DNA from: a virus
Taxonomy: Duplodnaviria; Caudoviricetes
Virus record (IMG/VR): IMGVR_UViG_3300044491_001751
Span: 1 to 53,938 of that record
Reading direction: 5' to 3' (one strand)
Length of the DNA: 53,938 nt
Below the pieces are notes generated by a model. The model was given only the letters and a program-made list of their open reading frames with translations, was not told the origin of the DNA and did not search any database. Shown piece after piece: positions 30,614 to 47,882 of the stretch. The position numbers were made by a program, and so were the translations under genes. The first letter of the stretch is position 1; each line of letters begins with the position of its first letter.

Positions 30614-32893
30614 TTAGAGCTCAATAGCAGCTGCGGTTGCGCCACCAGTGGTGTCGCGGAGAGCAGCGGCCACACCGTTAACGTTAACGGCCTGAGTGAT
30701 TGCTAGAGACTCGATACCTACCTTGGCAACGCCCTCGAAGGTCTCAACGAACATCTTGTAGTCGTTGGTTCCAACAAGCGAGCTGTCGCGGATGATACCT
30801 AGGTCTAGAGTTCCGCCGTCTAGGAACAAGAAGGTGCCCTCTGAGAAGAGGTACCACTTGAAGCTGTCTGGGAACTCGAGTAGACCAGTTGCGCCCTGTG
30901 CACCGAATGGGGTGGCGTCAGGAGATGCAACTAGAGTTACGTTCATGCTCGAGAGGTAGCCCTCGATCTCTGAACGAGCAACCGAAAGGGTGCCGTCACC
31001 TGGCATTGCGACCGCGAGGTCAGCTGCCATAGCGTCGTATACCCATTCAGGGATGATTGCCTTGAGCTGTGAGCCCTGAGCAATACGGTGGCGTGAACGG
31101 TAAGCAACAGCAGCCTTGCGCATGGTTACTAGGAAGTCACGACCGAAGCCCAGAAGGGTTCCAGAGGTAACAGCCGTCGAACCAGACTCGATCTTGCTGA
31201 TGATGTTCTGCTCTGCCTCACGTGCGTGCTGTACAAGGGCTAGCTCGTTGTGACGGGCAATTAGCTCTGGGTATGCACGAGTCATGAGGTTACCAAACTG
31301 CAGCTGCAGGGTGACAGCGTCAGTCACAGCGGTCTGCTCAGCAGCAGCTGAAACAGTTAGGCTGGACTTCGATGCTGGGCTTGGGGTTACTGCAGAGTCG
31401 TTAGCTGCAGTCCAAACGCCAACAGCGTCTGCGTAGTCACCAGAAGCAAAGCTTGGTGCGGTTACGAAGCGAACGCCGCCACGGTCAGCCTGGAAAGTAG
31501 GTAGGCTGTCGCGAACTGGACGTACGGTGGTTGAGCCAAGGCTGTAGATGTCGTACTTGACCTCTACTGGAGCTGCGTGACCACCAGAAGCAACAAGTGC
31601 TTCACGGCCTACAACGCCTTCAATCTTGGTCTGGTTCTCCAGTGGGTCGGTTCCTAGGAAACGGTCCTCTGGGTATTGGGTGGAGAAAGATGCAACAATG
31701 TGCTGCTCTCCGTCGCCACCGTTAACACGGCGTAGGCTGTGGAGACGCTTTTCAAATGCGCTTGCAACCTCTTTCATGTCATTCATAGTGCTTCCCGCGG
31801 TGTAGCCAGGAATGTCAGCGCCAGCAGTGATAGCCACTGGAGCCTCGGTTACCTGAACTACAGGCTGGCGGTCAGCAGGGGCCTCAAAGGCCTGTTCTTC
31901 TGCGGCGCTCACTAGTGCCTGCTCCTTCTGCTCTTCTACGAGAGCGGTTGTTGATTCGATTGTTTCTTCAGAAGAGAGCTCAGCCTCGGTCTCAACTTCG
32001 GCAACTGCTTCTGCAGTCTCTTCAGTTGATAGCTCGGTTGCTTCTTCTGTTGTGGTTGATAGTTCAGAACCGTCTTCCTGATCGGTTGATGCTTCTGCGG
32101 CAACCTCAGTCTCAGCTACTGCCTCTTCGGCAACAACTTCCTCTGCGATTTCCTCTGTAGATGCTTCGGCGGGTGCCTCTGCTTCTACGACAGCTTCGGT
32201 CTCGCTAGCCTCGGCCTCGACAGCAGTCTCTTCGACTGATGCCTCTGCCTCGACTGGAGCCTCAGCTACAGCCTCTTCAGCTGGAGCTTCTACAACCTCT
32301 TCGGTTGAGAGCTCTGCTTCTGGAGCAGCCTCTTCAATGACCTCTTCGGTAGCAGCTTCTGCTACTACTTCTTCGGTAGCAGCTTCTGCTACTACCTCGG
32401 TCTCGACAGCGGCTTCGGTTACTGCCTCAGCAGACTCCTGCTCAGAAGCGGATGCTGCGATTGTTTCGTCGGCAGACATTTCTTCCTCCTTCTTGTCTTC
32501 CTCTTCGGCGTCTTCCTCAGCTTCTGCCTCAGGCTCTTCTTCGGTTTCCTCCATAGGCATTTCTGCCTCTTCGGTTTCCTCGGATTCTTCCATGGGCTCG
32601 TCTTCGGTCATAGCCATTTCTTCTCCCTCGTCTTCAACCTGTCCCTTGACACGGGCGGTTGCGTCAGCAGCCCTCTGAGCGAGCTCAGCGGCCTGTGCTT
32701 CACGGTTAGATAGTTCTCCGCGAACGATGTCAAGAGAGTCAGCTAGTGACGTCATAGCATCAACTGTCTCAGGAGTAGGGTCTTCTCCCTCAACCGCTTC
32801 AAACTGGCTGATGATATCTGCTTGTAGTTCAGCGAGCTGTTCGTCGCTGAGCTCAGAGATACCATCTAGCTGAGTCTTGATTTGGTCGTACAC
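30614..32893 (-). CDS. major capsid protein with long acidic N-terminal scaffold-like region
   Basis: AGGAGG RBS; N-terminal coiled coil plus about 250 aa E/A-rich linker; C-terminal ASGGHAAP..Y.., RPVRDSLP.FQADRGG, FLFLDGGTLDLGIIRDS...NDY.MFVETFE. Confidence 0.9.
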   Translation of the reverse strand: MYDQIKTQLDGISELSDEQLAELQADIISQFEAVEGEDPTPETVDAMTSLADSLDIVRGELSNREAQAAELAQRAADATARVKGQVEDEGEEMAMTEDEPMEESEETEEAEMPMEETEEEPEAEAEEDAEEEDKKEEEMSADETIAASASEQESAEAVTEAAVETEVVAEAATEEVVAEAATEEVIEEAAPEAELSTEEVVEAPAEEAVAEAPVEAEASVEETAVEAEASETEAVVEAEAPAEASTEEIAEEVVAEEAVAETEVAAEASTDQEDGSELSTTTEEATELSTEETAEAVAEVETEAELSSEETIESTTALVEEQKEQALVSAAEEQAFEAPADRQPVVQVTEAPVAITAGADIPGYTAGSTMNDMKEVASAFEKRLHSLRRVNGGDGEQHIVASFSTQYPEDRFLGTDPLENQTKIEGVVGREALVASGGHAAPVEVKYDIYSLGSTTVRPVRDSLPTFQADRGGVRFVTAPSFASGDYADAVGVWTAANDSAVTPSPASKSSLTVSAAAEQTAVTDAVTLQLQFGNLMTRAYPELIARHNELALVQHAREAEQNIISKIESGSTAVTSGTLLGFGRDFLVTMRKAAVAYRSRHRIAQGSQLKAIIPEWVYDAMAADLAVAMPGDGTLSVARSEIEGYLSSMNVTLVASPDATPFGAQGATGLLEFPDSFKWYLFSEGTFLFLDGGTLDLGIIRDSSLVGTNDYKMFVETFEGVAKVGIESLAITQAVNVNGVAAALRDTTGGATAAAIEL
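32343..32395. repeat. 27-nt tandem duplication (EVVAEAATE x2) in MCP linker
   Basis: TCTTCGGTAGCAGCTTCTGCTACTAC at 32343 and 32370. Confidence 0.85.
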
Positions 32894-33006
32894 TGTACCT
32901 CCTAGGCCAGTTATGGTTGTGGGCGTGACTTACACCCTATTTTCAGTCAAGGCTAAGGGACTCAACGCACGGAGCGCGAGGCGCTTAAACCTACGATAAT
33001 TTTACC
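32894..33006 (-). promoter_or_regulatory. MCP promoter (GGTAAAAT) and structured ~100-nt 5' leader
   Basis: -10-like box at 32999-33006; hairpin AGCGC/GCGCT and interleaved TGACT/AGTCA + GGGTG/CGCCC stems. Confidence 0.55.
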
Positions 33007-33013
33007 TTATTTT

Positions 33014-36000
33014 TTAGGTAAGTAGTCGGAGTAGCTTGCTCATCTCAGATTGAACCTCTCCCTGAGAGTACAAATCTGCTCCTGACATGTAGGATCTGAG
33101 ACTTTGCGTAGCAATGTCAGCATCCTCTTTACCGATCTTTGCTTCGACTCGGCTAATCATTCCATCGATTAGATCCTTTAGTCCCGCGGGTAGATCGCTA
33201 AACTTAATTTTCTCTGCATCCTCGCCAAACGGTAGAGGTAGGTTCGAGATTGTCTTACCAAGCTCTGCTGCGGTTAGACGTACGTTCTCAAGAGCCTCTG
33301 GATTTAGTGCCTTGGCATCGAGACGGTCAATCATCTCCAAAAGCTGGGAGCTGGCAGCTGCAGATGCAGCATAATCACCAGCAAAGTCTAGATTTTCAGC
33401 GTCTTCAGCCTTTTTAAGGGCTTTTGCTAGACCAGCAACTCCAAGGTCCTGCTTTAGACGAGCTAGAACTGTGCGGTACTTTCCTTTAGCATCACGAGGC
33501 TGGTTTACGCCAGAGACATACTTAGGACGACCATCTTCGTCACGCTCTACGGGTTTGCCCTTGTTCTTTTTTACTTCTTCGGCAGCTTTGATTTCTTCTT
33601 CAGTTTGCTTGTCAGCTTCCTTCTTAGCTTCTTTAAGCTCGTCTAAGTCAGCATCAGAGATATCTTCATCTTTATCACCCGCTGCAGTCAAGTTACATCC
33701 GCAATCCTTGTTTGCAGCAGCTGTAATAGCAGCACGCATAGAGGCAACCTGTTCGGCAGCTTCTACAGACGATGCATTTTTCCAATGCTCTGGAACTAGC
33801 GCCCACTTGCCGAGCTGACGAGCACGCTTCATAATGTGCTTGCGAACCATGCGGCGCTCTGAAGCTTTTGCACGTCCATAAGCTTGAATTGCATTCTTCA
33901 AGTCTTCAACATTACGAATAGGATACGCGCCGTCATCTAGTGCGTGACCCTTCTTGGCTAGCTTCATTCTCTCTTCCTGAGAAATCTTTGCCAGCTCGGC
34001 TACGGCAGCAGCAACTAGTGCCTTTTCGCGCATACCTGTAGCGCTAGCTGTTAAAGCTTCAAGATTGGCTTCACGTAGAGCTTTCTTAGCTTCCCTGACA
34101 CGACCTCTTAGATTTGGTGCACTTGCAGCAAGCTCACCAAGCAACTCTGCTTTTGTATTTAGGGCACACGCAGGGCCCGAGCATTTCATGGCTGCCATGT
34201 AGCTTGCACCAGCAGCAACTAGGGCCATAACCTTTCCAGACGCAATCATTGCGCGAGCGGTCGGGAATCCTGGTACGTTGACCTGACAGATAGCAACTAG
34301 CTCTAGACCGCCTTGGATTGGACGCCAGTCTCCAGAGGGAGCAGAAGCACGAAGTGCACGAATCTGCATCTCGTCTAGGGCTGGACGGATAGAACCTGCA
34401 CACCAGATTCCGTACTCGTCTTCGCCAACGTGGATATCCGCAACAGCAGAGGCGGTGTCATCGTAGTGCTTAGCTGCAGACTTAGCGTCAGCGTTAAGAG
34501 GAGCGTGTCCGCCAGCAAGAGTTAGCTGACCGACTGGGACATCGTTACCGTCATCAGTGCGGAGTACGCCAGTGTGGAAGTACGCGTACTTGCTACGAGA
34601 GCGAGGCGGCTTGGTTGCACGTGGAAGCCCGATGTGGCTTACGTTCCATGCAGCAATGTGACCATAGATGCGACCATCATCATCAATAGTTAGTGGTGTT
34701 GGCTTAGTAAATCCAGGGTGCTTAAACCAGTCAGCAGGAGGAATCATTGGAACTTCCTGCTTTAGGAATCCAGACGCGGCAAGCGGTTCGAGGTCCGCGA
34801 AGTCTTCCATTGACTCTTCGTAGACGCCATCTTCTGGGGTCACGGCTTCCTCCTGATCCCCCTCGTTTTGTAATTCAATAGAGCATTCTTGGAATGCTGG
34901 CTTAGCTACAATTGTAGCAGCCATTATGCGTGCCTTAGTTATGGTCAGCTTGTCCTTGCCCATAACTTCGCCATCATCAGCATTTTCTTCTGCTTTTTCA
35001 GGCTTGTCTTCTTTTGCTTCAAACTGGTCAAGGTCAACAGAAACACCACGAAGGAAGCCGTGACGCACTAGACGTTCAGCCTCTTTTCCGTAAGGTCCAG
35101 TGTCAAAGACGCCATAGGCATTACCCAAGCCGCCCTCGACACGCTCGATATAGTCGATGCGACCAACCACAACGGAGCCATCGTGTCCAGAACCAGTCTT
35201 AATCTGCCAGAGCAGGGGGACTGGGAGGTCACGCGTTGAGATAGCGCCTTCTTTAAACTTTCTGCCGTCACCTGACTCTTGCTCTTCTGGCACAAGCATC
35301 GGAATAAAAAAGCTAGCGCCTTTTTCTTCTGTTGCAGCTGCAACTAGACCAACTTTTTGCCGAGCATCTGCAGCTAAAGCAGCAAGTCTTGACTTTTCTA
35401 CAATTATGGAATCAAAGGACTCTTCGGATGTAAACATCATCGAACTCCCGACGCGACCTCGGCCCTTCTTGCGGCCAGGGTTTCTCGGGTCGCCCGTGTA
35501 TACGCCAGTAACTTCTTTGTGGCGGAGCTGGCAGTATCCCTTTGCACGTGGACCCATGTACTTGGATAAGTAGCGTACGCAGCGGGTCCAGTCGCCAGGG
35601 GTTCCCCAGCGGATCTTGAGAGCACCCTTACCGCGAGTCCAGTAGCGACGAAGCTTCTCGGCACCGCCACGGTTTCGATCTAGGCCACCCTTTGCGAGCA
35701 GTGGCTCTACTACACCTTCCCAGAATTGAGCGAAGTCGTAGCCTGAGGCTTGCACAGCTGTTTCGTCAGCCTGCTTTAAGACATCATTTAGAACCTCTTT
35801 GTCGTCCAGCTGAACAACAGGTGGAGGAGTCGCTGACTTGAGGTCTAGAAGAATCTGATCATTCTTCTGCCACTTGCCTTCTACACGCTCGTAGACTACT
35901 GGTTCGGTAGAGGTCTTTGAGGCAGGAACAAGGGCCACGAGATCCATAACCGCGGTCATATCTTCAGGAGAAACGATAGCTAGGTACTTAGCTGGAACGT

Positions 36001-37588
36001 CAGACTCTTTTGGAGAGTTAATTGCTTCTTCTGCCTTCTCTCCAGCAGCGTTGATTCCGTGACGCTCTTTTACAAACTTTTTGTCATAGTCTTTTAGACC
36101 CTTAGGGTTGTCATCATAGGTCTTGTAAGAATTTCGCATCTTGGAAACATATGACGGAAAGTCTTTTAGGAGACTATTAATATCTTTACTAGTTAGCGGT
36201 GGAAGTGTCCCAGGGAGATGTGCTAGTGGCATATTTCTAGGAGTTCTTGGCTCTCCAAGAATTCCACTAAAATCAATTGGTGCTTGACGTTGGAGCATGG
36301 GGGTAGGAGCATCAACATCTGCTTCTGCCTGCGTGTATTTAGCATCAACAGAGATAGTCTTTCCACTATCTAAACGAACTTCAACTTTCCCAGACGCTAC
36401 ATCAATTTTAGTTATCTCTCCCGAGCCGCGCTCGGTGTCTCCTGCAACTACAGTTCTTGCACCTACAGTGACAAACTTACCGCCAGCATCTCTAGGCTGC
36501 TTGCTTGCAATCTTTGATCGCTCTTCAGGAGTGTAGTTTCCATCTCTGTTGGTCGGAGAGTCTCCCGCAGCCGTCAACACTCGGTCAATCATTCCGTAGT
36601 CTTCTTCTGATAGACCGTATGCAACCAGCTCGGCTTCTTCAGGATCAATCTCTTCTAGTTTGACAGGCTGGTATGGACGCTCTTGCATAAAAGCAGAAAG
36701 AATAACTGCAGACTCAGGGTCAATCATGACGTGAGTCTTTTCGACCATGTCGCCAAATTCGTCTAGCTCTTTGTCGTAGAAGTAGATGTCGCCATCGACG
36801 TGACCCATGTTATCCCAGCCGTCGCCGTCCCAGAGGAAGACGCTACCATCAATGTCAATTTTGTAGAGGCGGTCAATGCCAGAGTTGTCCATACGAACAC
36901 GAGCCATAAATTCTGGGCCAACATTCGGGTCCAGCTCGTGAGCCATGCGGAAAGACTCTAGATCACTAGAATACGTGCTGTACTCGGAAGTGGTCAGCTC
37001 GTCAATATTTTCGTCATAAGCACTAGCTGTTTTAGCTTTTCTGTCTTCACGCTCAACTATTGTACGCGCCCAGCTCCACGCAGGATCGCCGCCCCAGAGA
37101 GCCCAAGCAATTTTTCCGTTTGACGGATAGCCATCTTCTCCGCGGTCCCAGCCTTTACCCTTCTTGTCAACTTCGTGACGAGGGAAATACTTTGCAATGT
37201 GGCGAACCTTCTGGATACCAATCTGTCCACCCTTAGCTAGGGTGCGAGCAGTGTTCATGCCAACAGGGGTGCCACCACGTCCGTGCTCTTTACGCCATTC
37301 AAGAGCTTTCTTTGCCTCTCGCTGTACGCTACCTGGGATTGTGTAAAGTCTTGACTTGCGTTCTCCGCCTGCAGTTAGAGGCCCTTTAAAATACCCGACG
37401 GCTGCGTTAGCCAAAGCAATAGCGTCGTCTGATGCGTCTAGCTGAGAAACCTCCCACTTCTCTGCAGACGAAAGATTTTCGTGAGCGTCAACAGCCTGAA
37501 CAATATTCAGGTCAGTGTCGATTACAACACCACGTTCTCCGTCCGAGAATAGGGAAAGATTACCTTTAGTTCCCGCTAGGGTTAGCAC
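33014..37588 (-). CDS. multidomain head protein containing capsid maturation protease
   Basis: Directly upstream of MCP; protease-like segment E..SGDGR.F...LPVPLLWQ..GHDGSVVVGRID...RGVSVDLD...ATIVAKPAF; other modules IAWALWGGD, IRWGTPGDWTRC, DGAYPIRNVEDLKNAIQAYGRA (DUF6582-like). Confidence 0.8.
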   Translation of the reverse strand: MLTLAGTKGNLSLFSDGERGVVIDTDLNIVQAVDAHENLSSAEKWEVSQLDASDDAIALANAAVGYFKGPLTAGGERKSRLYTIPGSVQREAKKALEWRKEHGRGGTPVGMNTARTLAKGGQIGIQKVRHIAKYFPRHEVDKKGKGWDRGEDGYPSNGKIAWALWGGDPAWSWARTIVEREDRKAKTASAYDENIDELTTSEYSTYSSDLESFRMAHELDPNVGPEFMARVRMDNSGIDRLYKIDIDGSVFLWDGDGWDNMGHVDGDIYFYDKELDEFGDMVEKTHVMIDPESAVILSAFMQERPYQPVKLEEIDPEEAELVAYGLSEEDYGMIDRVLTAAGDSPTNRDGNYTPEERSKIASKQPRDAGGKFVTVGARTVVAGDTERGSGEITKIDVASGKVEVRLDSGKTISVDAKYTQAEADVDAPTPMLQRQAPIDFSGILGEPRTPRNMPLAHLPGTLPPLTSKDINSLLKDFPSYVSKMRNSYKTYDDNPKGLKDYDKKFVKERHGINAAGEKAEEAINSPKESDVPAKYLAIVSPEDMTAVMDLVALVPASKTSTEPVVYERVEGKWQKNDQILLDLKSATPPPVVQLDDKEVLNDVLKQADETAVQASGYDFAQFWEGVVEPLLAKGGLDRNRGGAEKLRRYWTRGKGALKIRWGTPGDWTRCVRYLSKYMGPRAKGYCQLRHKEVTGVYTGDPRNPGRKKGRGRVGSSMMFTSEESFDSIIVEKSRLAALAADARQKVGLVAAATEEKGASFFIPMLVPEEQESGDGRKFKEGAISTRDLPVPLLWQIKTGSGHDGSVVVGRIDYIERVEGGLGNAYGVFDTGPYGKEAERLVRHGFLRGVSVDLDQFEAKEDKPEKAEENADDGEVMGKDKLTITKARIMAATIVAKPAFQECSIELQNEGDQEEAVTPEDGVYEESMEDFADLEPLAASGFLKQEVPMIPPADWFKHPGFTKPTPLTIDDDGRIYGHIAAWNVSHIGLPRATKPPRSRSKYAYFHTGVLRTDDGNDVPVGQLTLAGGHAPLNADAKSAAKHYDDTASAVADIHVGEDEYGIWCAGSIRPALDEMQIRALRASAPSGDWRPIQGGLELVAICQVNVPGFPTARAMIASGKVMALVAAGASYMAAMKCSGPACALNTKAELLGELAASAPNLRGRVREAKKALREANLEALTASATGMREKALVAAAVAELAKISQEERMKLAKKGHALDDGAYPIRNVEDLKNAIQAYGRAKASERRMVRKHIMKRARQLGKWALVPEHWKNASSVEAAEQVASMRAAITAAANKDCGCNLTAAGDKDEDISDADLDELKEAKKEADKQTEEEIKAAEEVKKNKGKPVERDEDGRPKYVSGVNQPRDAKGKYRTVLARLKQDLGVAGLAKALKKAEDAENLDFAGDYAASAAASSQLLEMIDRLDAKALNPEALENVRLTAAELGKTISNLPLPFGEDAEKIKFSDLPAGLKDLIDGMISRVEAKIGKEDADIATQSLRSYMSGADLYSQGEVQSEMSKLLRLLT

Positions 37589-37963
37589 TTAGTTCTCCTG
37601 CTTAGAGTCTTCTAGAACAACTTCTAGTTGGCTGGCATATTTTTCAAGCATAGGGGTGTCAATTTTCTCCCCTTTGTCCCAAGCCTGAACTAGTTGATGC
37701 TCCCATGCATTTTTATCTGCAGGATCTGCATCAATAATCGGTTCCTTTTCCCAATCGACTTTCCAAACATCGTACTTTTCCGAGTTTAGATACTTATCAA
37801 CTACTGGATCTTGGCGAGTAACCATGTCCCATTCGGCGTTCCGTCTAATGCCTGTTCCGATTAGGTTAAAAGTGAAAATGGCATCGACTTCGTCTGTACC
37901 CTTATTCACGTAAACGTAAATAGATACAGGCTCACTGTCTACATACTTTGAATCTTCAGCCAT
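37589..37963 (-). CDS. hypothetical protein
   Basis: 124-aa ORF with AGGA RBS and upstream GGTAAAAT box. Confidence 0.75.
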   Translation of the reverse strand: MAEDSKYVDSEPVSIYVYVNKGTDEVDAIFTFNLIGTGIRRNAEWDMVTRQDPVVDKYLNSEKYDVWKVDWEKEPIIDADPADKNAWEHQLVQAWDKGEKIDTPMLEKYASQLEVVLEDSKQEN

Positions 37964-38028
37964 ATTTTTCCTAATCAGTGTCTAGATAGGTGGAGCCAGG
38001 TACTATTTTACCATAATGCTCCATTTAT

Positions 38029-38211
38029 CTAGTCTTTTAGCTCCTTTATGAGCCTTTGTCCGTAGTAATTCCTTAAAGTTGGCACTACTACAACCAGCTC
38101 AGCAACTTCCTCGAGGGATAGCGAGTCTAGATCTAGGCGCTCTTCAATGGGACCATCTTCAGTGTCAATGGTGATATTGACAACGTTTGAGTTGTTCTCT
38201 TGATCTTCCAT
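38029..38211 (-). CDS. small acidic hypothetical protein
   Basis: 60-aa ORF with AGGA RBS directly after the zincin-domain gene. Confidence 0.65.
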   Translation of the reverse strand: MEDQENNSNVVNITIDTEDGPIEERLDLDSLSLEEVAELVVVVPTLRNYYGQRLIKELKD

Positions 38212-38224
38212 AAGTATTCCTATC

Positions 38225-41200
38225 TTATCCGAGATCTACACTATCAATGATGTCAAATGACTTCAAAAAGTCTAAGAACGCTGGGGCAGCTTCACCTGTC
38301 ATTACCCACTTGGCAAATGAGTCAGCAAAGTGTTCATCTTTAGACTTTTTGCCGTAGCTAGTAATAAAATCTTTCGCGGCTTCGCTGTAGTTGTCACCTA
38401 GTCGAGATCCTCCCCCGCTGAGCCTAGCTAGCTTATTTCCAATAGTGTGACCAAATTCATGTACAAAGGTGTGAACCTCTGCGTCACCAAAGTCACCAGC
38501 TGGCTTAGAGCCAGAAGCCAAGCTTCCATGGTTGATCAAGATTGCAGTGTCCCATTTGCCAGGTTCTCCAGCTCGGGGGGAAGAAATGTTTACGCCAAGA
38601 ACACCCGCTGTATTGCTCCAAGTTCGTCCAATGGAGTTGTATAGGGCCTGGAAGGTAGTGGGACTATCTACAATTCTGATGTAGTGGCCTTCATCACTGC
38701 CATCTACGAGGGACTTCAACTGAGGGTTACTGTTTATAAACTTGTCTACGCCTTCAACTGCTGACATATACTTCTCGAGGTCAGAGTCACTTACTCCTAG
38801 CTCTAGAGTATTATTGCTTTTATTGCGTTTGATGTCGACTCTAAGGTCTTGAACTCCGCCCTCTCCCTTTCGGAAAATAGCAGCTTCTTGAAGAATATTG
38901 TCAATCATCTTTTCTTTGGTCATGCCAAAGAATCCACGCTGCTTGGAGTGCTTAAGCTCTAGGAGTGTCCTAATCTCGGAATCAGTCAAGTCTGGGTATT
39001 CGGAACGAGCTTGCTCTACAAGCTTTGCTAGTTCACCAGAAGTAAAGAATGACTTTGCATTAAAGGAAGAAGCATCATAAGTCCATGTATCGCCTAGTTT
39101 TTTAGACAACCCAGACGCCATCTCATCGATTTCTCTCTGCACTAGATCATTGAGTGCGAGCTGCTGTTCGGCGTTACGCTTCGAATTAGCAGGAACATTG
39201 AAGTCAAGGCCAACAGTCTTTGGACGCTCCACGCTGTCTGGGTCAGTTTCAAAAACTATAGAGTCCAGGTCAAAATCAGGATCTGATTCGGCCACGTCTG
39301 CTTCAACTGTTCTGGTCTTCTGAGGAACAGTGTCAGCGTTGCTTGTCACAACTTTAGGACCGCGCTCTTCACCAGCTGCAATTGCAACCTTGCGAAGCTC
39401 GCCTTCTTTATTCATGTAAAGAACTCCATAGCCCTTCTTGTCGTCCTTACCGACAATTGGTACGGACTCGATAATTACACCAAGGTTAGATCCGTCTTTA
39501 CCGTAAAGGTTGTCGCCAGGGACTACATCATCAATAGGTCCAACTTTGTCAGGAACAGTGTTCTGTCCAGGGAATCTGAGCGTAGTTGGGTTGTACAGCA
39601 TTCCTCGCTCTTCGCGGAGCTGCCTTCCTGAAACACGGCCCTTAAATTCTGTCAGCTCAGTGTTTTGATCCTTTAGAATTCTAAGGTTTGTTGTTGGAAT
39701 AGAAGACCTGTTTCCATTCGCATCTGTGATAGTTACGTAGTCTCCGTATCCAAAGTTGTCATCGCTCTGTACAGGATTTGCGAAGTTACTTCTCTGACGA
39801 GCTGAAACTCTAACAATTGACTTCTCGCCAATGTTGTTCTCGTATTCGACAACATTTCCAACTTCTACAGGGGTAACCTTGTCAGTTGAAGAGTAAGGAA
39901 TTACCCTAGCGTTTTCATCTGCAAACATTGTCTTACGGTAGAAGTTAGACGCGGAGGTTACTAGAGCGCCAAAGCTTCTCTTGTCCTCTCCTGGGAACTT
40001 TTCTGCAAACTGCTCCCTCAGGGTGGCCATTACAATATCGTGACTTGCTTGGTCGGCAGGAACTCGACCAAACACCGCCCTAAGTCTTTCTGCTACAGCG
40101 TCAAAGTCTTTTTCCTTATAGCCATCAAAGACGCCCTTAACCTCTTTGTTAAGCAGAGTTCCGTCGCTGTAGTTGATTCTTTCGGCGTAGCCGTTTGCGT
40201 AGTACTTAGTGGTGTCCTCGATGCTCTTGGTTCTGCCCTGAAGCGTGAAGTAGTGAGCACGCTCTTTCGGATCATTAGCGTGAACATCAGTAATAAAGTT
40301 TTTGTTGTAGGTACGAGACTCCTTGCCAGTGAGAATGTCAGCAAGCATCTGAGGACTGTTTGTCTTACCAAACAGAGAAGTCATAGAGTCGCGGCCGTCG
40401 TAGTGAAGAACAGTCTCCTCTTCGCCAGTATTTAGGTCCTTGAACTTAAACATGTAACCGATCTTCTTGTCTCCAAGAATTGCGGCCTTTATTTCCCATT
40501 GCAGTCTCTTGCCATTTTCTCTAGAGACCTCTCGCATAAGAACAAGGTGGCCGTTCTCGTCGAACTTAGAATTCTTGTAGGCATTAGCAAGGAAGTTCAT
40601 CATCGCGTTAGGGTCTTTGGGGTTATAAGCCTTGCCCTTTGAGTTGTACTCAACTTGCGCTTCGCCGTCAGGGCCAATCAAGTTTTCAAGGTTAGAGTTG
40701 CGAAGCTCTTTCAATTCTTCTTCGCTGAATCGCTGCTGCTTAATGAGCTGACCATTGTCCATCTTGCGTCGAGCTGCTCCTGGAGCTGCAGGAGCTTTAG
40801 GCTCTGGTTCTGGAGTTGGCTCGGGTTCTGGACGCTCGTCTACTGGCTTGCGGGGTGCCTTTGGCTTCTCTGGCTTTTCAGATGCTGGGCGCTTTGGAGC
40901 ATCTTCTGCCTTTCGCACTCTGCTAACTCCAGCATTTCCAGGGAATCTTCCAGCCTTAGCAATTCGACCGTTGTCGTCGACGTAAAGCTCTACTTCACCC
41001 TGGTCGCCAACTGGCTTAACTTCTGCAACTCGCTTGTTGCCCTGCTTACCAAGAGAAATTACGTCACCTGGCTTCAAGTCAGTTAGCGGGACCTCTTCAG
41101 GCTTGCTTTGAGCTTCGCTAATTATTGAATCTAGATCTGGCTCTCCACCATAAAAACCTTCTGCCATTGCGTCATGGATTAGGGCTTCTTCAAAAGGTCC

Positions 41201-41869
41201 GTCAAGTTCAGCTGGATCTTCACCGTCCCTAGCCGTGTCCTCGGGAGCTTCATCCAAAAGGTCAGCAACATCTTCACCCTCGACAGCCTCCATTCCTGGA
41301 GGTAGTTTTGCTAGAGGCTCTTGGTCACGCTCTGCGCGGAAGTCTTTGTCTTCTTCGTCGGTAAGACCGCCGTTTGCTAGTTCGATGTCTAGGTCGTCAG
41401 CTGGCTTTGGGTTTAAGTCTTCTAGCTTGTTGTATTTTTCACCTAGTCCCTTTGGCAAGGTGTGCTGAAGGTCTGGGTCAATGCCCTTGCGCTTTAGGAA
41501 GTCACGGTCGAGCTTAATCTTAGTGTCGAGCTCTGCAGTAGCGGGGTCTAGCTCAATTACAGTGTTTTTTCTTAGGTCCAGTTCGGGAGCATCTTCTGTT
41601 AGTAGAGCCCTAATCTTATTTTTCTCGCCTTTAGAAGTAGCAGTTCCACCAATAGCCTTTAGACTGTACTTTTTTATTGAACCAGGACGGCCACCAATCG
41701 AACGGCCCTTGCTGTCCTCGGGAACGAAGTCCTTTCCTTGAATCATGCCGAAGAGGGCAGCACCAGTAGGAATCCAGCGGCCCTTTTTGTCACGGGGCTG
41801 CAGCTTGACACGTGCACGGCGAGCAATAGGGGAGTTACCGTCAGCAATCAAGGTTTTGAGGTCAGACAT
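38225..41869 (-). CDS. large head-associated protein with C-terminal zincin metallopeptidase domain
   Basis: N-terminal QPRDKKGRW motif; C-terminal HTFVHEFGH ... SYG...DEHFADSFAKW (HExxH + downstream E). Confidence 0.75.
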   Translation of the reverse strand: MSDLKTLIADGNSPIARRARVKLQPRDKKGRWIPTGAALFGMIQGKDFVPEDSKGRSIGGRPGSIKKYSLKAIGGTATSKGEKNKIRALLTEDAPELDLRKNTVIELDPATAELDTKIKLDRDFLKRKGIDPDLQHTLPKGLGEKYNKLEDLNPKPADDLDIELANGGLTDEEDKDFRAERDQEPLAKLPPGMEAVEGEDVADLLDEAPEDTARDGEDPAELDGPFEEALIHDAMAEGFYGGEPDLDSIISEAQSKPEEVPLTDLKPGDVISLGKQGNKRVAEVKPVGDQGEVELYVDDNGRIAKAGRFPGNAGVSRVRKAEDAPKRPASEKPEKPKAPRKPVDERPEPEPTPEPEPKAPAAPGAARRKMDNGQLIKQQRFSEEELKELRNSNLENLIGPDGEAQVEYNSKGKAYNPKDPNAMMNFLANAYKNSKFDENGHLVLMREVSRENGKRLQWEIKAAILGDKKIGYMFKFKDLNTGEEETVLHYDGRDSMTSLFGKTNSPQMLADILTGKESRTYNKNFITDVHANDPKERAHYFTLQGRTKSIEDTTKYYANGYAERINYSDGTLLNKEVKGVFDGYKEKDFDAVAERLRAVFGRVPADQASHDIVMATLREQFAEKFPGEDKRSFGALVTSASNFYRKTMFADENARVIPYSSTDKVTPVEVGNVVEYENNIGEKSIVRVSARQRSNFANPVQSDDNFGYGDYVTITDANGNRSSIPTTNLRILKDQNTELTEFKGRVSGRQLREERGMLYNPTTLRFPGQNTVPDKVGPIDDVVPGDNLYGKDGSNLGVIIESVPIVGKDDKKGYGVLYMNKEGELRKVAIAAGEERGPKVVTSNADTVPQKTRTVEADVAESDPDFDLDSIVFETDPDSVERPKTVGLDFNVPANSKRNAEQQLALNDLVQREIDEMASGLSKKLGDTWTYDASSFNAKSFFTSGELAKLVEQARSEYPDLTDSEIRTLLELKHSKQRGFFGMTKEKMIDNILQEAAIFRKGEGGVQDLRVDIKRNKSNNTLELGVSDSDLEKYMSAVEGVDKFINSNPQLKSLVDGSDEGHYIRIVDSPTTFQALYNSIGRTWSNTAGVLGVNISSPRAGEPGKWDTAILINHGSLASGSKPAGDFGDAEVHTFVHEFGHTIGNKLARLSGGGSRLGDNYSEAAKDFITSYGKKSKDEHFADSFAKWVMTGEAAPAFLDFLKSFDIIDSVDLG

Positions 41870-41925
41870 TAATTTCCTCTTTAGTATATTAAAACTACTA
41901 AAATTTTACCCTATTAAGGTAGTTG

Positions 41926-42693
41926 TTAGTTAGAGAGCAGCGAGTTGATTAGACTCATGGTGTCTTTAGAAACAGCCCCGCTAGAAACTAAAGCCTTTAC
42001 TCGACTACTAGCGTGTATGGATTCGATTGAATCACTAGACGCTGTAAGTGACGCAATGACTGCATCCCGAGAAGATTCGTCCAGTTCTGGTGCACCTGCA
42101 ATCCACTCAATCTGAGAGGCTGTGGACGCAATAATTGCCGTAGCTGGATGACCTGTGTTGAGTAGATCGTTGTGCTCGGAAACTTCTTCTAGAGCGTCTG
42201 TCTGGTTTAGAGTTGAGTACTCTAGGAAAGAGTGAAGCTCCCACAATATGGCATCGGAAAGTTCGGCACTCGAGCAGCTGTCAGCATATGCATCGTAAGA
42301 TCTAGAGGCAACCTCGGCTGCGGCAGACAGCCCAACCTGACGTGACCCTCCAACCTTAGAGTTATAGAGAGAAAGAACTTCTTCGATTTCATCTGAAGTC
42401 AAAACTGACTGAAGCTTTTCAAGTGATTGGGCGGCCTTTAGTGGAACACAGTTTGGCACCATGTCTCCGCCTTTGCCCTTTTTCATGCCAACTTGGACAT
42501 ACCCTTCCCAGCAAGGGTCACCAGGGTTCTTCTCCAAGGCAGCCTCGTCTTCGTGCTCGGAGTCCTTCATGAGAGTTCCGTCTGGCATGTAGTGATAGCC
42601 TTCAGGAGCTTCTTTTTTGCCAGCTTCTAGATTTTCTGCAGGCGCAGCGTGACCACCAGAAGCATTAATTACTTTGTCTAAGTACTCAGACAC
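41926..42693 (-). CDS. hypothetical head-module protein
   Basis: VINASGGHAAP, APEGYHYMPDGTLMKDSEH and PCWEGYVQVGMK...VPNCVP short motifs. Confidence 0.75.
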   Translation of the reverse strand: MSEYLDKVINASGGHAAPAENLEAGKKEAPEGYHYMPDGTLMKDSEHEDEAALEKNPGDPCWEGYVQVGMKKGKGGDMVPNCVPLKAAQSLEKLQSVLTSDEIEEVLSLYNSKVGGSRQVGLSAAAEVASRSYDAYADSCSSAELSDAILWELHSFLEYSTLNQTDALEEVSEHNDLLNTGHPATAIIASTASQIEWIAGAPELDESSRDAVIASLTASSDSIESIHASSRVKALVSSGAVSKDTMSLINSLLSN

Positions 42694-43148
42694 TATCGAA
42701 CTCCTAGGAATGCCTTAATCTGCCATCTCCACTTTTTGTGCATGTCTTCGCGCTGAGCGAGGAAGTCCATGAGACCAAACTCGCGGCACTTTTCTGCAAT
42801 CTCCCCTGCTTCATGTAGACAGTGAATCATCATGTCATTGACACGAAGTGCTGACTGAAGCATGAACTGTACGGAGCTGCCATCATGACGCTCTTCTTTG
42901 ATACAGGAAAGCTCTAGGTAGTCCTGTAGTAGGTAAGGCGCTGGGTATCCAACCTTAAGAATATTTTCAGCAAGGTCGTCAACTGAGCCTTCGACGTCTT
43001 CGTACAGCATTCCGAAGAACTCGTGGTACTCACCGAAGTCTGGGCCAAGTACGTTCCAATGATACCCCTGAAGGATAAATCTGGTTGTAACGGTGTCAGC
43101 TAATAGGTGAGCTAGCTTTTCGCCTAGTTCTGGGTTTGGGTGGTGCAT
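42693..43148 (-). CDS. dps: Dps-family DNA-protecting ferritin-like protein
   Basis: HWNVLGPDFGEYHEFF..LYE.....DDLAE ferroxidase motif; H.KWRWQI C-terminus; 151 aa. Confidence 0.9.
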   Translation of the reverse strand: MHHPNPELGEKLAHLLADTVTTRFILQGYHWNVLGPDFGEYHEFFGMLYEDVEGSVDDLAENILKVGYPAPYLLQDYLELSCIKEERHDGSSVQFMLQSALRVNDMMIHCLHEAGEIAEKCREFGLMDFLAQREDMHKKWRWQIKAFLGVR

Positions 43149-43149
43149 A

Positions 43150-44892
43150 CTATGCCTCTGGTTCCGCTAGTGGTGGGGTGGCTTCAGCAGGTGTAATTGG
43201 AGCTTCTTCAGAGTCCTCTACCTGCTCTGGTTCTCCCTGTAACAGTTGATCAATTTCTGGAGGAATCGGGGCTCCGCCCTCTTGCATTGTCTGCTGACGC
43301 ATTTCTCCCATAACTTCTGGTGCAACGGAGCGGAGCAGTGCTTCGGTGAGCTCTGGAGTAACCATACCCTTTTGCATGACCATACGAAGTACGTACTCCT
43401 TTGGATCTGGAGCATCTGCTTCTGAGAATCCGTGAGCACGACGCCATGCGTCGTAGGAAACAGCAATCTTGTCGAATCCTGCATCTGCATCTGCAGCACG
43501 GTCGTTGCGAGTGGCAACCTGGGATGGGTCAAACCAAATGCAGACATCCTTTACTTCTTGCTCGGAGTATCCGTTAGCAATCAGGTATGGACGCAGATAG
43601 ACAACAGTAAGCGCGTCAACTATAAGCAGCATCAGTGGTTCGATGTGTGCCTTGTAAAGAGCTTCGTCAATTTGCAGCGCGTTAGAGTACTTAACGTTTG
43701 CAAGACCAGTGACTACATCCTTAGGGACATCTAGTCCCTGCATGATGCGCTCTAGTACGCGGTCTGCACGCTGTGCCAAGGCGGGGTCGAAAGAACGCTC
43801 AAACTTGAACTGCTTGATGCGGTCGCCAAGCTCCGCAGGTCCGCGAATGATAAGTGGTACAACGGCAGATGCAGAATCCTCGTCCTTAATAGGCGTGGTC
43901 ATTGCATCAATTAGCTGGTCTTCAAACTCGTCCGCTGCTTCCTCAGCTGTGTAAGTTTCGTTGTAATTTCCATCTTCATCGTAAGGATAATCAGGGTCAG
44001 GACCAGCGGCAACAGAAAGACCGTCAGGAAGATATAGAGCGCCAGCATTGAGGCGAGAGCGAGCAGTCGCACGGAATGTCCTATTCAAAAGTAGAAGCTC
44101 GGCGCAGAGGTCTAGTAGACCGCGCAAGCTTGAGTCAGCCTCTTGGGTGTAGCGAGGGTGTGAACGCCAGATGCGTCCAACGAATGAAGACTGAGGGAGG
44201 CGAATAGCATCCTTGTTGCCCTGAGACATTACAGACGCAGTTCCTCCTCCAATATCGCGACGAGGATTAATTATGTAGTTGCCTTTAGAGTCAACCTGTA
44301 GCTCATCAATCGAGCGAACGTCCCAGGTCTCGGGAAGTCCAGAGCCAATACGTTCTGGAAGCTGAACTAGATAGCACTCTCCTGTAACTTGCAAGTTAAG
44401 AGCTGCATCTTTAAGGAGGCCTGCTTGTCCGCCATATGCAGAGCTAAGACGATCAAGTGCACGCTGAGCGGCAGCCGCTAGCTTGACGTCAACCCTCTCT
44501 ACACCCTCGATGGGGGATGGTGCGTCTGCTGGATTACTAATAGCAGCTGCATAGAGACGAATACGAGATACAACAGACGCAACTAGGTTAAAAGCGTACT
44601 TGATTTCACCAATTGAGTCGTAGTACTCCCAGGCTTCTGTCTGCCAAGCGGTGGATGCTGACTGTCGACGAGCTTTGAATAGCTCTGCCTCGGTTTTGTC
44701 GTCTAGTTTGACCTGGGCAGCGGCCGCGGTTAGACCTCTAGGTTGATTAAAAGCTGCTGGTTCGGCATAAACAACGCCAAAAGAGTCAACAGACACTCCA
44801 GGAGCTACGCGAGTGGCAGTTCTAGGTGCTGAAGCACGCACACCCCTACGAGATTCGCTTGGTTTCTCGTTTTCTTTCTTGAAAATAGCCAA
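43150..44892 (-). CDS. portal protein
   Basis: After terminase; WQTEAWEYYDSIGEIKY, SRIRLYAA, IWRSHPR...ADS, RSRLNAG.L.LP actinophage portal motifs. Confidence 0.88.
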   Translation of the reverse strand: MAIFKKENEKPSESRRGVRASAPRTATRVAPGVSVDSFGVVYAEPAAFNQPRGLTAAAAQVKLDDKTEAELFKARRQSASTAWQTEAWEYYDSIGEIKYAFNLVASVVSRIRLYAAAISNPADAPSPIEGVERVDVKLAAAAQRALDRLSSAYGGQAGLLKDAALNLQVTGECYLVQLPERIGSGLPETWDVRSIDELQVDSKGNYIINPRRDIGGGTASVMSQGNKDAIRLPQSSFVGRIWRSHPRYTQEADSSLRGLLDLCAELLLLNRTFRATARSRLNAGALYLPDGLSVAAGPDPDYPYDEDGNYNETYTAEEAADEFEDQLIDAMTTPIKDEDSASAVVPLIIRGPAELGDRIKQFKFERSFDPALAQRADRVLERIMQGLDVPKDVVTGLANVKYSNALQIDEALYKAHIEPLMLLIVDALTVVYLRPYLIANGYSEQEVKDVCIWFDPSQVATRNDRAADADAGFDKIAVSYDAWRRAHGFSEADAPDPKEYVLRMVMQKGMVTPELTEALLRSVAPEVMGEMRQQTMQEGGAPIPPEIDQLLQGEPEQVEDSEEAPITPAEATPPLAEPEA

Positions 44893-45201: not shown

Positions 45202-45566
45202 TATTCATCCTTAATCGAGGCCAAAGTTCTGTAAGGATTCCAACCTCGTAGTCGAGAACCACATCCGCAGCCTCGGTCTTTCCTAAATGCTAGCATTTTT
45301 CCCGACGAAGTGACAACATAAGAGTCTTCACCAGCGTCTTTCGACGGTTCAAAGGTCGTATATGTCTCGCGAAATACGACTTGCGGCCCTTCTGGCCCGT
45401 CTTTTGCCACCATAATGGTCTCATCTGTAACAATAACCCTTGTAACGTCTAAATATTTTGTGTCTTTAGTTGGTGGCTGACTGCTTAGAGAGGTTACATC
45501 GTCTGTAAACCCTGCAGGTACAGCCACTAAATTGCATGGAAACCTGTCCATGATTATCTTTGACAC
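45201..45566 (-). CDS. hypothetical protein
   Basis: C-terminal GCGCGSRLRGWNP motif; coupled between terminase and DUF1360 gene. Confidence 0.75.
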   Translation of the reverse strand: MSKIIMDRFPCNLVAVPAGFTDDVTSLSSQPPTKDTKYLDVTRVIVTDETIMVAKDGPEGPQVVFRETYTTFEPSKDAGEDSYVVTSSGKMLAFRKDRGCGCGSRLRGWNPYRTLASIKDE

Positions 45567-47545: not shown

Positions 47546-47582
47546 GGGGAGCATGGTATTAGCTACTAGCCAATTTGTCAAG

Positions 47583-47882
47583 TGGAGCTGGGGGGATTCG
47601 AACCCCCGTCCGATAAGCCATCGTCTGTTCTTCTACGTGCGTAGGCTCTACCAGCCACGGTACTGCGGTTTGCGTTTGCGGTCGCCACCGTAATGCTGTG
47701 TTCTATTTATTTAAACCCTGTGGCGATTAGTTAGAACTACTTCTACCAGAGGGGCTCAGCTAAGCAGCTAGAGCGAATGCAGACTGTGAGTTTGCGTTTA
47801 TTTTTGTTGCCCGATTCAAGAGGTACAGGCTTCTCTGCACGCTTCACCAGATTCAAACATACCGTCGAAACCAGTCAGCCCC
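47583..47882 (-). ncRNA. ssrA: tmRNA, tag peptide (A)ANSQSAFALAA
   Basis: 5' GGGGCTGACTGGTTTCGAC; 3' GACGGGGGTTCGAATCCCCCCAGCTCCA with G3:U wobble; resume context AATAAAC-GCA; tag ORF 47760-47795. Confidence 0.95.

Follow-up and report, generated by a model that had tools for sequence, protein, structure and literature searches.

The head genes of an actinobacterial tailed-phage contig raise the question of why one short pattern, a hydrophobic residue, any residue, an alanine and then a small residue ([LIV]xA[ASG]), recurs in proteins as different as a capsid protein, a portal and a very long protein encoded between them. The contig is IMG/VR virus record IMGVR_UViG_3300044491_001751 (Duplodnaviria; Caudoviricetes); the window analysed here is the whole 53.9-kb phage contig (positions 1 to 53,938), with its head and tail genes all on the minus strand. 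For the long protein, of 1524 amino acids (aa), the original prediction, made from the letters alone, had proposed a polyprotein cut at this pattern by an assemblin-like head protease, with the same signal trimming scaffold and cargo. Our analysis supports the motif as a real, lineage-wide, position-specific signal confined to head proteins, and it is rather probably the recognition site of the head maturation protease, which would cut after the alanine. This protease-code idea is partly supported, by its lineage-wide, head-confined signal, by a match to a boundary within the capsid protein and by sites that flank protease-like domains down to about 30% identity; a scaffold label is not established, and its extension to cargo is weak. 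The proteins concerned include the following.

30614..32893, minus strand: major capsid ('hexamer') protein (MCP), 759 aa; NF033847 MCP_Sipho at 309 bits (cut-off 75) and a phrog_777 match
33014..37588, minus strand: 1524-aa head polyprotein candidate, from the open reading frame (ORF) list and PHROG matches
38225-41869, minus strand: 1214-aa cargo-like protein
43150-44892, minus strand: portal, phrog_776

The fifth head protein, of 255 aa, is encoded just upstream of the 1214-aa gene.

Enrichment of the motif in head proteins

All 18 motif strings named in the original prediction were present at their places when the coordinates were re-translated. The 1524-aa protein carries PLTAGG (residue 70), VLTAAG (337), GINAAG (511), AVQASG (611), GLVAAA (747), PLAASG (935), ALVAAG (1122), ALTASA (1178), ALVAAA (1190), AITAAA (1287) and NLTAAG (1299). 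The MCP has TIAASA (144), AITAGA (354) and ALVASG (432), the portal GLTAAA (53), the 255-aa protein VINASG (8) and SLTASS (215), and the 1214-aa protein LIADG (7).

Chance expectation was taken from 2000 shuffles per protein, made globally and within 50-aa blocks. The four-residue motif occurs 24 times in the 1524-aa protein against 8.8 expected and eight times in the 255-aa protein against 2.0, counts reached by none of the 2000 shuffles in either case, and twice in the 1214-aa protein (3.8 expected). For the five head proteins pooled the count is 49 against 25.4 (0/500 shuffles), and for the 34 non-head ORFs it is 51 against 47.0 (p = 0.27). With a second small residue required ([LIV]xA[ASG][ASG]), the counts are 14 against 2.3 in the 1524-aa protein, 4 against 0.65 in the 255-aa protein (p = 0.005), 5 against 1.0 in the portal (p = 0.0035), 4 against 2.0 in the MCP (p = 0.13) and 12 against 11.5 in the non-head ORFs. 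The excess of head over non-head proteins foreseen after correction for composition is thus found in the 1524-aa and 255-aa proteins, is found in the portal with the five-residue form only, and is absent from the MCP taken alone.

The head proteins are rich in alanine (11.8-16.6%); Ala-rich non-head ORFs show no motif enrichment, and the reversed motif is not enriched either (20 in the head proteins against 25.6 expected). When the five residue classes were arranged in 36 orders, the true order was the commonest in the 1524-aa protein, with 15 occurrences. The next two, with 11 and 10, were the true motif shifted by one residue, and the median order had about 3.5.

Replication in homologues and in other phages

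The closest named relative of the 1524-aa protein is found in Actinomycetia phage DSL-LC01 (53% identity), followed by Microbacterium phages of the Pumpernickel group (41-44%). Partial relatives occur in Arthrobacter phages (Mimi, Atuin), Gordonia phages (Sixama, GMA2) and hundreds of Mycobacterium phages, the latter being cluster B phages such as Orion and Rosebush. As a set of homologues we used 119 sequences of 60-89% identity, which are the best 120 of 1422 matches minus the window's own entry. Each of the 119 contains 10-23 copies of [LIVM]xA[ASG][ASG], where about 2.6 would be expected, and the ratio of observed to expected has a median of 6.1 and a minimum of 4.2. Of the homologue cells, 84% retain the motif, whereas permuted control patterns with the same mean site identity are retained in 62%.

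Gene families were built from 52 related viral contigs, with the ORF alignment covering at least 60% of the window protein, a length of 0.6-1.6 times that protein and duplicates removed. The ratio of observed to expected five-residue motifs was 5.9 for the polyprotein family, 3.5 for the portal, 3.5 for the 255-aa protein and 2.8 for the MCP. It was 0.76 for the terminase, 0.25 for a Dps-like protein, 0.80 for the 1214-aa cargo, 0.86 for the pentamer protein, 0 for a 124-aa protein, 1.3 for the adaptor and 1.75 for the major tail protein.

The signal was also found in other phages. For Pumpernickel the analysis covered the first 150,000 of its 186,095 bases, with 144 non-overlapping ORFs of at least 100 aa. 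There the protease fusion gp84 has 16 five-residue motifs against 2.6 expected and the MCP 7 against 1.9, while the other 140 ORFs, among which the portal ORF was counted, have 43 against 46.3; no further ORF of the 144 with at least three matches reaches p < 0.1. Three further phages agree, with 10 motifs (3.3 expected) in gp11 of Streptomyces phage TP1604, 8 (1.2 expected) in gp17 of Gordonia phage Fireball and 12 (2.2 expected) in gp25 of Microbacterium phage Squash. The cluster B fusion proteins, which are shorter, show no significant excess (4 in Orion gp9, with 1.7 expected; 2 in Rosebush gp13, with 1.8 expected).

A non-circular scan used a position matrix for P4 to P2' that was derived from the MCP-family column only, the window's own row being left out. 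Among the 42 window ORFs, eight matches outside the MCP score at least 10. Seven of these lie in the 1524-aa protein, which makes up 9.8% of the residues (binomial P = 6e-7), and one in the 255-aa protein. In Pumpernickel, the top seven non-MCP matches in the 144 ORFs are all in gp84, which accounts for 3.7% of the residues (P = 1e-10).

Conservation of the sites in homologues, which had been expected, was confirmed as position-specific across the 119 sequences, and some sites are kept down to 25-34% identity. At that distance (cluster B, Gordonia and Arthrobacter phages), a site in the MCP is kept in 6/6 relatives, one in the portal in 3/3 and the polyprotein site at residue 748 in 4/4, and the polyprotein sites at 936 and 1123 are present as the four- or five-residue motif in every distant relative aligned.

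The site at the MCP boundary

The MCP has three sites, listed here with the proposed bond marked by a slash.

31583..31597, minus strand: LVA/SG, aa 433-437, proposed cut A435/S436
31817..31831, minus strand: ITA/GA, aa 355-359; kept in 33/33 close relatives, Pumpernickel and Mimi, not kept in cluster B
32447..32461, minus strand: IAA/SA, aa 145-149, in the acidic low-complexity part of the delta domain

A search with MCP residues 400-759 against one representative per 50%-identity cluster gave 1986 matches at E<=0.001. In the best 150 of these, the column of A435 is alanine in all 146 representatives that cover it. The consensus is A-[L/I]-[V/T]-A-[A/S]-G-G-[L/I/F/Y]-C-A-P, with G437 in 140/146, G438 in 144 and P442 in 143 representatives. 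The part of the protein before A435 ranges from 57 to 435 aa (median 253), and the part after it has a median of 323 aa and measures 314-344 aa in 90% of cases. Such a length pattern is as expected if A435 divides a variable, delta- or scaffold-like domain from a constant shell protein. The site is kept in 33/33 close relatives and in all six distant ones (DSL-LC01, Pumpernickel, Mimi, Sixama, Orion and Rosebush). TP1604, Fireball and Squash keep it as well, and it is exactly the point from which similarity to the window MCP becomes detectable in cluster B1 phages. The pattern at site 145 is kept in 29/33 relatives despite a flank identity of 0.41, and among distant relatives in Sixama only.

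Family model and length pattern together point to an HK97-type capsid protein with an N-terminal delta-type extension; no PDB relatives of the MCP were found by sequence. In a low-confidence AlphaFold model, a 30-residue helix at 542-571 begins about 106 residues past the A435 site, which fits the spine helix of the HK97 fold. In HK97 gp5 the distance from the site to the spine helix is about 100 residues. Residue 440 of the MCP (31574-31576), four after the proposed new N-terminus, is cysteine in 129/146 representatives and alanine in the window.

Sites and modules of the 1524-aa protein

The 1524-aa protein can be divided approximately into modules at residues 1-73, 74-340, 341-514, 515-614, 615-750 (D), 751-938 (E), 939-1125 (F), 1126-1302 and 1303-1524. 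Retention of a site means here that the motif is found within 6 aa on either side in the homologue, for which the shuffle rate gives a chance estimate of about 8%. From the N-terminus, the sites are as follows.

37364..37378, minus strand: LTA/GG, aa 71-75, end of the ~73-aa N-terminal module; kept in 73/86 homologues
36563..36577, minus strand: LTA/AG, aa 338-342; kept in 114/119 homologues, in DSL-LC01 and Mimi, not in Pumpernickel
36041..36055, minus strand: INA/AG, aa 512-516; kept in 102/119 homologues and in Pumpernickel and Mimi (2/2 aligned)
35741..35755, minus strand: VQA/SG, aa 612-616, upstream of module D; kept in 105/119, not at the aligned place in Pumpernickel and DSL-LC01
35687..35701, minus strand: near-site LLA/KG, aa 630-634, directly before the GLDRNRG...YWTRGKG module D
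35333..35347, minus strand: LVA/AA, aa 748-752, N-terminal flank of domain E; kept in 118/119 and in 4/4 distant relatives aligned
34769..34783, minus strand: LAA/SG, aa 936-940, between domains E and F; kept in 119/119 with P2 variable
34208..34222, minus strand: LVA/AG, aa 1123-1127, C-terminal flank of domain F; ALVAAGA invariant in 119/119
34004..34054, minus strand: LTA/SA (aa 1179) and LVA/AA (aa 1191); kept in 100/119 and 118/119 close homologues
33677..33727, minus strand: ITA/AA (aa 1288) and LTA/AG (aa 1300), before the C-terminal module; kept in 76/119 and 90/115 homologues

The near-site at 630 has lysine at P1' in the window and alanine in most relatives, so that the strict motif is present in 103/119 homologues, in Pumpernickel, in DSL-LC01 and at the start of duplicated D modules in the related loci L035-L047. 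In L035-L039 and L047 the polyprotein gene breaks off after module D; the next ORF downstream opens with a second copy of D that is preceded by [AS]L[IT]A/[AG]GGLDRNRG. Site 936 appears in five distant relatives as the five-residue motif in three and the four-residue motif in two; for site 1123, the second-best match of the MCP-derived matrix, the corresponding numbers in six distant relatives, cluster B included, are four and two. Sites 1179 and 1191 are not kept in distant relatives. By a strict column count, some four-residue matches are poorly kept (QLDAS at 50 in 1/73 homologues, SVEAA at 1275 in 9/118), and NLTAAG at 1300, counted without tolerance, is kept in just 18/32.

Within the sites, P2 is free while P3, P1 and P1' are held, as in EP[LI]-(A/M/T/L)-ASGF at site 936. 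Several sites form islands in indel-rich, poorly conserved stretches, with flank identities of 0.39 at site 512, 0.43 at site 1288 and 0.41 at MCP site 145. A logo pooled from 1237 site instances has A, P or S at P4; L (46%), I (27%), V (17%) or M (11%) at P3; V (33%), T (28%) or others (39%) at P2; alanine at P1 by definition of the pattern; A (59%), S (37%) or G (3%) at P1'; and G (47%) or A (40%) at P2'.

A second short element, QPRDxxG[KR][FWY], occurs three times in the 42 ORFs, at residues 364 and 1363 of the 1524-aa protein and at residue 24 of the 1214-aa protein. Each copy lies 5-27 residues after a module start or a motif site, and all cargo-family N-termini from relatives have the element. 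It may be a head-targeting or a DNA- or portal-binding tag.

Sites and module boundaries

The sites had been said to fall often at module boundaries. This claim was partly borne out, in the parts that an AlphaFold model resolves and at gene splits in relatives; a test based on conservation was not significant. In the model of residues 325-1524, islands of higher confidence by the predicted local distance difference test (pLDDT) lie at 355-424, 465-504, 525-604, 645-694, 755-844 and 1205-1284, followed by a C-terminal helical domain. The bonds of sites 338, 512, 612, 630, 748, 1288 and 1300 are all (7/7) in segments of pLDDT below 50 between these islands, against a random mean of 2.5 (P about 0.001), with residues 905-1204 omitted from the test by a decision taken after the model was seen. 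The stretches of low identity and many gaps are 1-80, 181-220, 341-360, 421-440, 481-520, 601-620, 701-760, 861-880, 1281-1320 and 1341-1360; sites 71, 512, 612, 748, 1288 and 1300 are inside or within one residue of them, and site 338 is 14 residues off.

Gene structure in relatives gives further support. In 34/119 homologues the first ~75 residues are missing, and the protein starts 0-8 residues before the YTIPGG block that follows site 71. The gene is split at about residue 710 of the query, after module D and near site 748, in L035-L039, L047, Mimi and Sixama; at 906-916, near site 936, in L019, L034 and Sixama; and at 1296-1358 in L016, L022, L025 and DSL-LC01, where the C-terminal module is separate and the upstream ORF ends just past sites 1288/1300. 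Where a downstream part is its own gene, the motif often stands about 10-20 residues after the start codon, as in MIPQDGIYEES..AIVA/SGF (L019), ..RAMVA/GAA (Sixama gp79) and AALTA/SG at residue 9 (Fireball gp17), and it is ~20 aa after the start where domain F is a separate gene (L019, L034, Sixama and Fireball). Shortly after the start codon of a separate gene, the motif looks like a leader for removal, not a mere inter-domain linker.

In DSL-LC01 (L001, 12001-16920), three coding sequences annotated 'capsid maturation protease' correspond to one gene of the 1524-aa type. We do not take all of them as natural splits: the first break is inside conserved module C and looks like a frameshift or assembly error, and only the last matches a module boundary.

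Several results speak against a general link of sites with boundaries. By conservation, 6/14 sites are within 10 aa of a window below 50% identity, where the random mean is 4.6 (P = 0.29), and sites 936-1191 lie outside the low-identity stretches, in well conserved sequence. The model is of low confidence (mean pLDDT 50.7), and its residues 905-1204 stay at pLDDT ~30-40 throughout, giving no domain definition for sites 936-1191.

Candidate protease domains

Two adjacent domains of the 1524-aa protein are candidates for the enzyme.

34775..35338, minus strand: domain E, aa 751-938, S78/HK97-type prohead serine protease-like (Pfam PF04586)
34214..34774, minus strand: domain F, aa 939-1125, the most conserved part of the 1524-aa protein in an alignment of 10 sequences down to 32% identity

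Residues 750-930 alone score 23.3 bits against PF04586 (cut-off 21), and the whole protein scores 18.5 bits. Against the NCBIfam equivalog TIGR01543 (proheadase_HK97), domain E scores 16.2 bits, and because this is far under the cut-off of 59, domain E is a distant relative of the HK97 proheadase at best and not an equivalog. Its His802 and Ser850, 48 residues apart, are invariant in 9/9 diverse sequences, cluster B included, and in 38/38. The catalytic His and Ser of HK97 gp4 are spaced by about 50 residues.

Domain F has the invariant residues H977, H985, S999, H1028, H1041 and S1085. It matches nothing in Pfam or NCBIfam, nor in the PDB by sequence or profile, and its model has a pLDDT of ~30-40; in Gordonia phage records it is annotated 'capsid maturation protease'. 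No similarity between E and F was detected by hhalign or profile comparison, and a single match that would have made them homologous was traced to one alignment row (L024) running on into domain F. For the protease candidates of the 1524-aa protein, no sequence similarity to herpesvirus S21 was found.

Domain F stands by itself, without other parts of the 1524-aa protein, in two Gordonia phage genes annotated 'capsid maturation protease', Sixama gp79 and Fireball gp17 (L056 9469-10482 and L066 3333-4550). When all six frames of the complete Sixama genome were searched with domain E, nothing was found at E<=1, a point against the protease-code reading; even so, Sixama retains the MCP site. Domain F is flanked by sites 936 and 1123, which of all polyprotein sites are conserved most deeply. 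Since domain F occurs alone in Sixama and Fireball and is flanked by these two sites, the head protease may be domain E, domain F or both.

Sites in the portal, the 255-aa protein and the cargo-like protein

Sites of the other head proteins are as follows.

44719..44733, minus strand: portal site LTA/AA, aa 54-58, candidate removal of a 56-aa N-terminal leader
42655..42669, minus strand: 255-aa protein site INA/SG, aa 9-13, followed by SGGHAAP, identical to the MCP
41837..41851, minus strand: near-match LIA/DG of the 1214-aa protein, aa 7-11, followed by QPRDKKGRW

The portal site is kept in all 24 close homologues listed, and in three distant loci it is shifted by two residues as ALVA/S. It is kept in Pumpernickel, Orion and Rosebush (3/3), and in Squash it is at aa 13.

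The N-terminal site of the 255-aa protein is the third-best match of the MCP-derived matrix, taken over seven residues. The relatives of this protein are N-terminal domains of giant cargo-like proteins, and a 3289-aa protein of DSL-LC01 belongs to its family. A role as scaffold is not established for it, and we would call it a head-internal or targeting module.

The family of the 1214-aa protein is hypervariable, with 886-2772 aa in related viral contigs and 2235 aa in Pumpernickel gp82; only the first ~60 residues, with the tag QPRDxxGRW, are common. A looser pattern, [LIVM][LIVTA][AS]x[GIALY], is present in 26/26 distinct cargo N-termini, at residues 5-18 and before the tag; the strict motif is scarce there because P1' is often Asp, Val or Phe. 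Trimming of the cargo by the same signal, suggested by these N-termini, is weakly supported. Cargo bodies are not enriched, the five-residue motif being absent from Pumpernickel gp82 (0 against 2.3 expected), and a motif-free body would suit proteins that survive inside a protease-filled prohead.

The 1214-aa protein ends in a zincin-type HEFGH motif; its sole Pfam signal is ATLF at 17.5 bits (cut-off 27.4), and no PDB relatives were found for its C-terminus. The corresponding part of the Sixama head module encodes a 1285-aa protein with the annotation ADP-ribosyltransferase toxin, which has DTLVA/SGFG at residue 51. No similarity between it and the 1214-aa protein was detected.

Proposed processing and alternative explanations

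In the reading that we favour, the motif P4 [A/P/S], P3 [L/I/V/M], P2 [V/T/x], P1 Ala / P1' [A/S/G], P2' [G/A] would be cut after the alanine inside the assembled prohead. The cut A435/S436 would remove the 435-aa acidic delta/scaffold domain of the MCP and leave a 324-aa HK97-type shell protein, and the cut A56/A57 would remove the N-terminal leader of the portal. About 8-11 cuts in the 1524-aa protein would free the protease domain(s), which are flanked by its two most conserved sites, and several small internal head proteins. The released modules would be basic (341-514, 615-750 and 1194-1290) or acidic (74-340, 515-614 and 1303-1524). The cuts, their order and the domain, E or F, that would make them are proposed from sequence. 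The most secure appear to be the site at the MCP boundary, that of the portal and those on the flanks of domains E and F. Sites 1179 and 1191, those in the 255-aa protein and the leader of the cargo appear the least secure.

Several observations weigh against this reading. Taken alone, the portal (7 against 4.0, p = 0.10) and the MCP (8 against 6.9, p = 0.39) are not enriched in the four-residue motif. The motif was defined after the sequence had been read, a bias that only the matrix scan and the replicates in other phages escape. The N-terminal site of the 255-aa protein is kept in just 6/12 alignable homologues, and the sites of this protein are poorly kept in general. Of the 26 cargo N-termini, eight have the strict four-residue motif and three the five-residue form. 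The AlphaFold model of MCP residues 300-759 is of low confidence (mean pLDDT 46.4). In the full-text literature searched, neither virion proteomics nor an observed cleavage was found for this phage or its relatives. A search of full-text literature, with subscription journals and supplementary files outside its scope, gave no paper with this motif or with a mapped cleavage site for this capsid family. The main text of the Rosebush capsid paper contains neither cleavage information nor band sizes, and the cluster J paper was set aside as a source on cleavage, as it concerns an unrelated capsid family.

A fuller form of the proposal is tentative and we hold it to be distinctly less probable than the recognition site itself. 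It states jointly that the 1524-aa protein would be a true phage polyprotein with about ten Ala/(Ser/Ala/Gly) cuts, that one code would serve capsid, portal and polyprotein across a large actinophage lineage including cluster B mycobacteriophages, and that domain F would be the reader. Domain F is considered as the enzyme because it is present even in phages without an S78-like domain, and it would then represent a new family of capsid maturation proteases with assemblin-like specificity.

Among the rival explanations, the one that survives best, though it seems unlikely, is that the motif recurs as an uncut piece of structure, such as a strand-turn or the end of a helix, conserved for folding or capsid contacts. 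The MCP stretch ALVASGG-x-CAP would then be part of the mature N-arm or a conserved interior element. The P' side of the MCP site is strongly conserved, as much as the P side, which would fit a purely structural role too and is a further point against cutting. Several polyprotein sites also lie in highly conserved sequence (ALVAAGA in 119/119; LRASAPSGDW inside domain F), and the conservation test of linkers was not significant. However, a structural element would hardly explain why the same short pattern is found in the non-homologous MCP, portal, polyprotein linkers and 255-aa protein, or why it persists in indel-rich stretches (site 512 and MCP site 145) with P2 free while P3, P1 and P1' are kept. 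Nor would it explain a pattern that stands exactly where the N-terminal length variation of the MCP ends and ~20 aa after the start codon when modules are separate genes.

We regard as still more doubtful the idea that the motif is a docking or targeting tag, which would draw proteins into the prohead by attaching to the protease, the portal or the inside of the shell and would not itself be a scissile bond. The giant cargo, most in need of targeting, is not enriched (0.80) and has only the loose N-terminal version, and a tag would not need 10-16 copies in one polypeptide or a copy at each module flank. Such a role would agree with the occurrence of the motif in proteins that all must enter the prohead, with the identical A-SGGHAAP stretch that the MCP shares with the N-terminus of the 255-aa protein, and with the second N-terminal tag, QPRDxxG[KR][FWY], that stands alongside in three modules. 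Finally, an artefact of composition in Ala-, Ser- and Gly-rich head proteins, chosen after the fact, is suggested by their alanine content and by the lack of significance of the four-residue motif in the MCP and portal alone, but was rejected as scarcely credible, because the observed counts exceed those of shuffled sequences (global or local), of the reversed motif and of the 35 permuted orders. Moreover, Ala-rich non-head ORFs are not enriched, and the signal recurs in other genomes and in a scan with a matrix built without the polyprotein.

Other genes of the contig

On the minus strand, the head genes follow in the order terminase, portal, Dps-like, 255-aa, 1214-aa, 124-aa, 1524-aa, MCP and 292-aa. 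The 292-aa gene is the counterpart of the 'major capsid pentamer protein' of relatives, and beyond it lie genes for the major tail protein, adaptor, tape measure and minor tail proteins. Further genes and RNAs are listed below.

45566-46987, minus strand: large terminase, Pfam Terminase_6N/6C
42693-43148, minus strand: Dps/ferritin-like gene, PF00210 (7e-15), between the portal and 255-aa genes
47580-47882, minus strand: phage-borne transfer-messenger RNA gene, Rfam RF00023 (128.8 bits), tag peptide ANSQSAFALAA, just upstream of the terminase region
48075-48146, minus strand: tRNA-Asn, just upstream of the terminase region
48583-50769, minus strand: 728-aa catalase-peroxidase (KatG-like), Pfam peroxidase in two stretches (1.2e-66)
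52392-53069, minus strand: NlpC/P60 peptidase-domain protein (9.8e-15), near the contig end
3206-4288, plus strand: family-2 glycosyltransferase with TPR repeats, near the contig end

The Dps-like gene is at the same place in 34 related loci (27 after length filtering and removal of duplicates). Its family is depleted of the motif, with one five-residue match against 3.9 expected and nine four-residue matches against 19.4 in 28 sequences, and its product is perhaps a packaged protein that needs to resist the protease. Together, the KatG-like and Dps-like genes point to an oxidative-stress theme in the phage contig.

Comparison with known systems and significance

Herpesvirus assemblin (UL26/UL80a-type, MEROPS S21) has the consensus (V/L/I)-x-A/S at its R and M sites, and prohead proteases and assemblin are reportedly related in fold. 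The candidate system resembles assemblin in its hydrophobic P3, free P2, alanine at P1 and small P1', a likeness of sequence to the known consensus. It would also share with it a protease embedded in a longer precursor with scaffold-like parts and flanking sites, and a substrate inside an HK97-fold procapsid. In contrast to assemblin, P1' is Ala (59%) or Ser (37%) and P2' Gly or Ala, there are about 12 sites per polyprotein, the capsid protein and portal carry the site as well, and the virus is bacterial.

In HK97, the protease gp4 (about 25 kDa) is a separate, free protein, and we know of no strict sequence consensus for its cuts. The likeness to gp4/gp5 is that domain E reaches the S78 cut-off when taken alone and that the MCP has a delta-type extension instead of a separate scaffold gene. 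In contrast to HK97, the domain is embedded centrally in the 1524-aa protein, and the consensus is sharp.

The T4 rule is L/I-x-E. The candidate code shares with T4, phiKZ and SPN3US the logic of one protease and one short code on capsid, portal and internal proteins, whereas P1 is Ala here and not Glu as in T4 and phiKZ, a different class of specificity. According to the available part of a published account, one prohead protease (T4 gp21, phiKZ gp175 or SPN3US gp245) trims the MCP, the portal and numerous proteins that are internal or ejected, all at one short motif, several copies of which may stand inside propeptides, and these enzymes cut after Glu (PMC10052503). Moreover, the enzymes of T4, phiKZ and SPN3US are free-standing, and their substrates lose N-terminal propeptides without forming a long polyprotein.

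In the accessible text of Iyer et al. 2017, polyvalent head proteins are proposed, on computational grounds, to be processed by embedded peptidases, in analogy with RNA virus polyproteins, with an assemblin-like peptidase at the C-terminus (PMC5512222). Like them, the 1524-aa protein is a large multidomain protein among head genes for which self-processing is proposed. Unlike them, it has its S78-like domain in a central position (aa 751-938 of 1524) and not at the C-terminus, and the text available of that source gives no cleavage motif (PMC5512222).

Annotated counterparts are the SEA-PHAGES 'capsid maturation protease and MuF-like fusion proteins' such as Orion gp9 and Rosebush gp13 of Mycobacterium phages, which are homologous over E and F (34% identity over 364-373 aa). 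Shared features are the gene order portal, fusion protein, MCP 'hexamer' and 'pentamer' and the motif at the MCP, at the portal and at a flank of domain F. These fusion proteins differ from the 1524-aa protein in being about half as long (815-857 aa) and in having a different N-terminal part.

In the available part of a preprint on actinobacteriophage capsids, the delta-domain cleavage site is described as currently unpredictable (10.1101/2022.09.09.507160). If the code is true, the mature N-terminus of the MCP and the set of processed head proteins would be predictable from sequence alone, in a lineage that yielded 846 phage records in a single search and 1986 representatives of the capsid protein. 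Prohead proteases would then have a second sharply defined specificity, parallel to that of herpesviruses, in addition to the Glu-specific one of T4/phiKZ, and the code could serve as a handle for putting engineered cargo into actinophage capsids or for its release.

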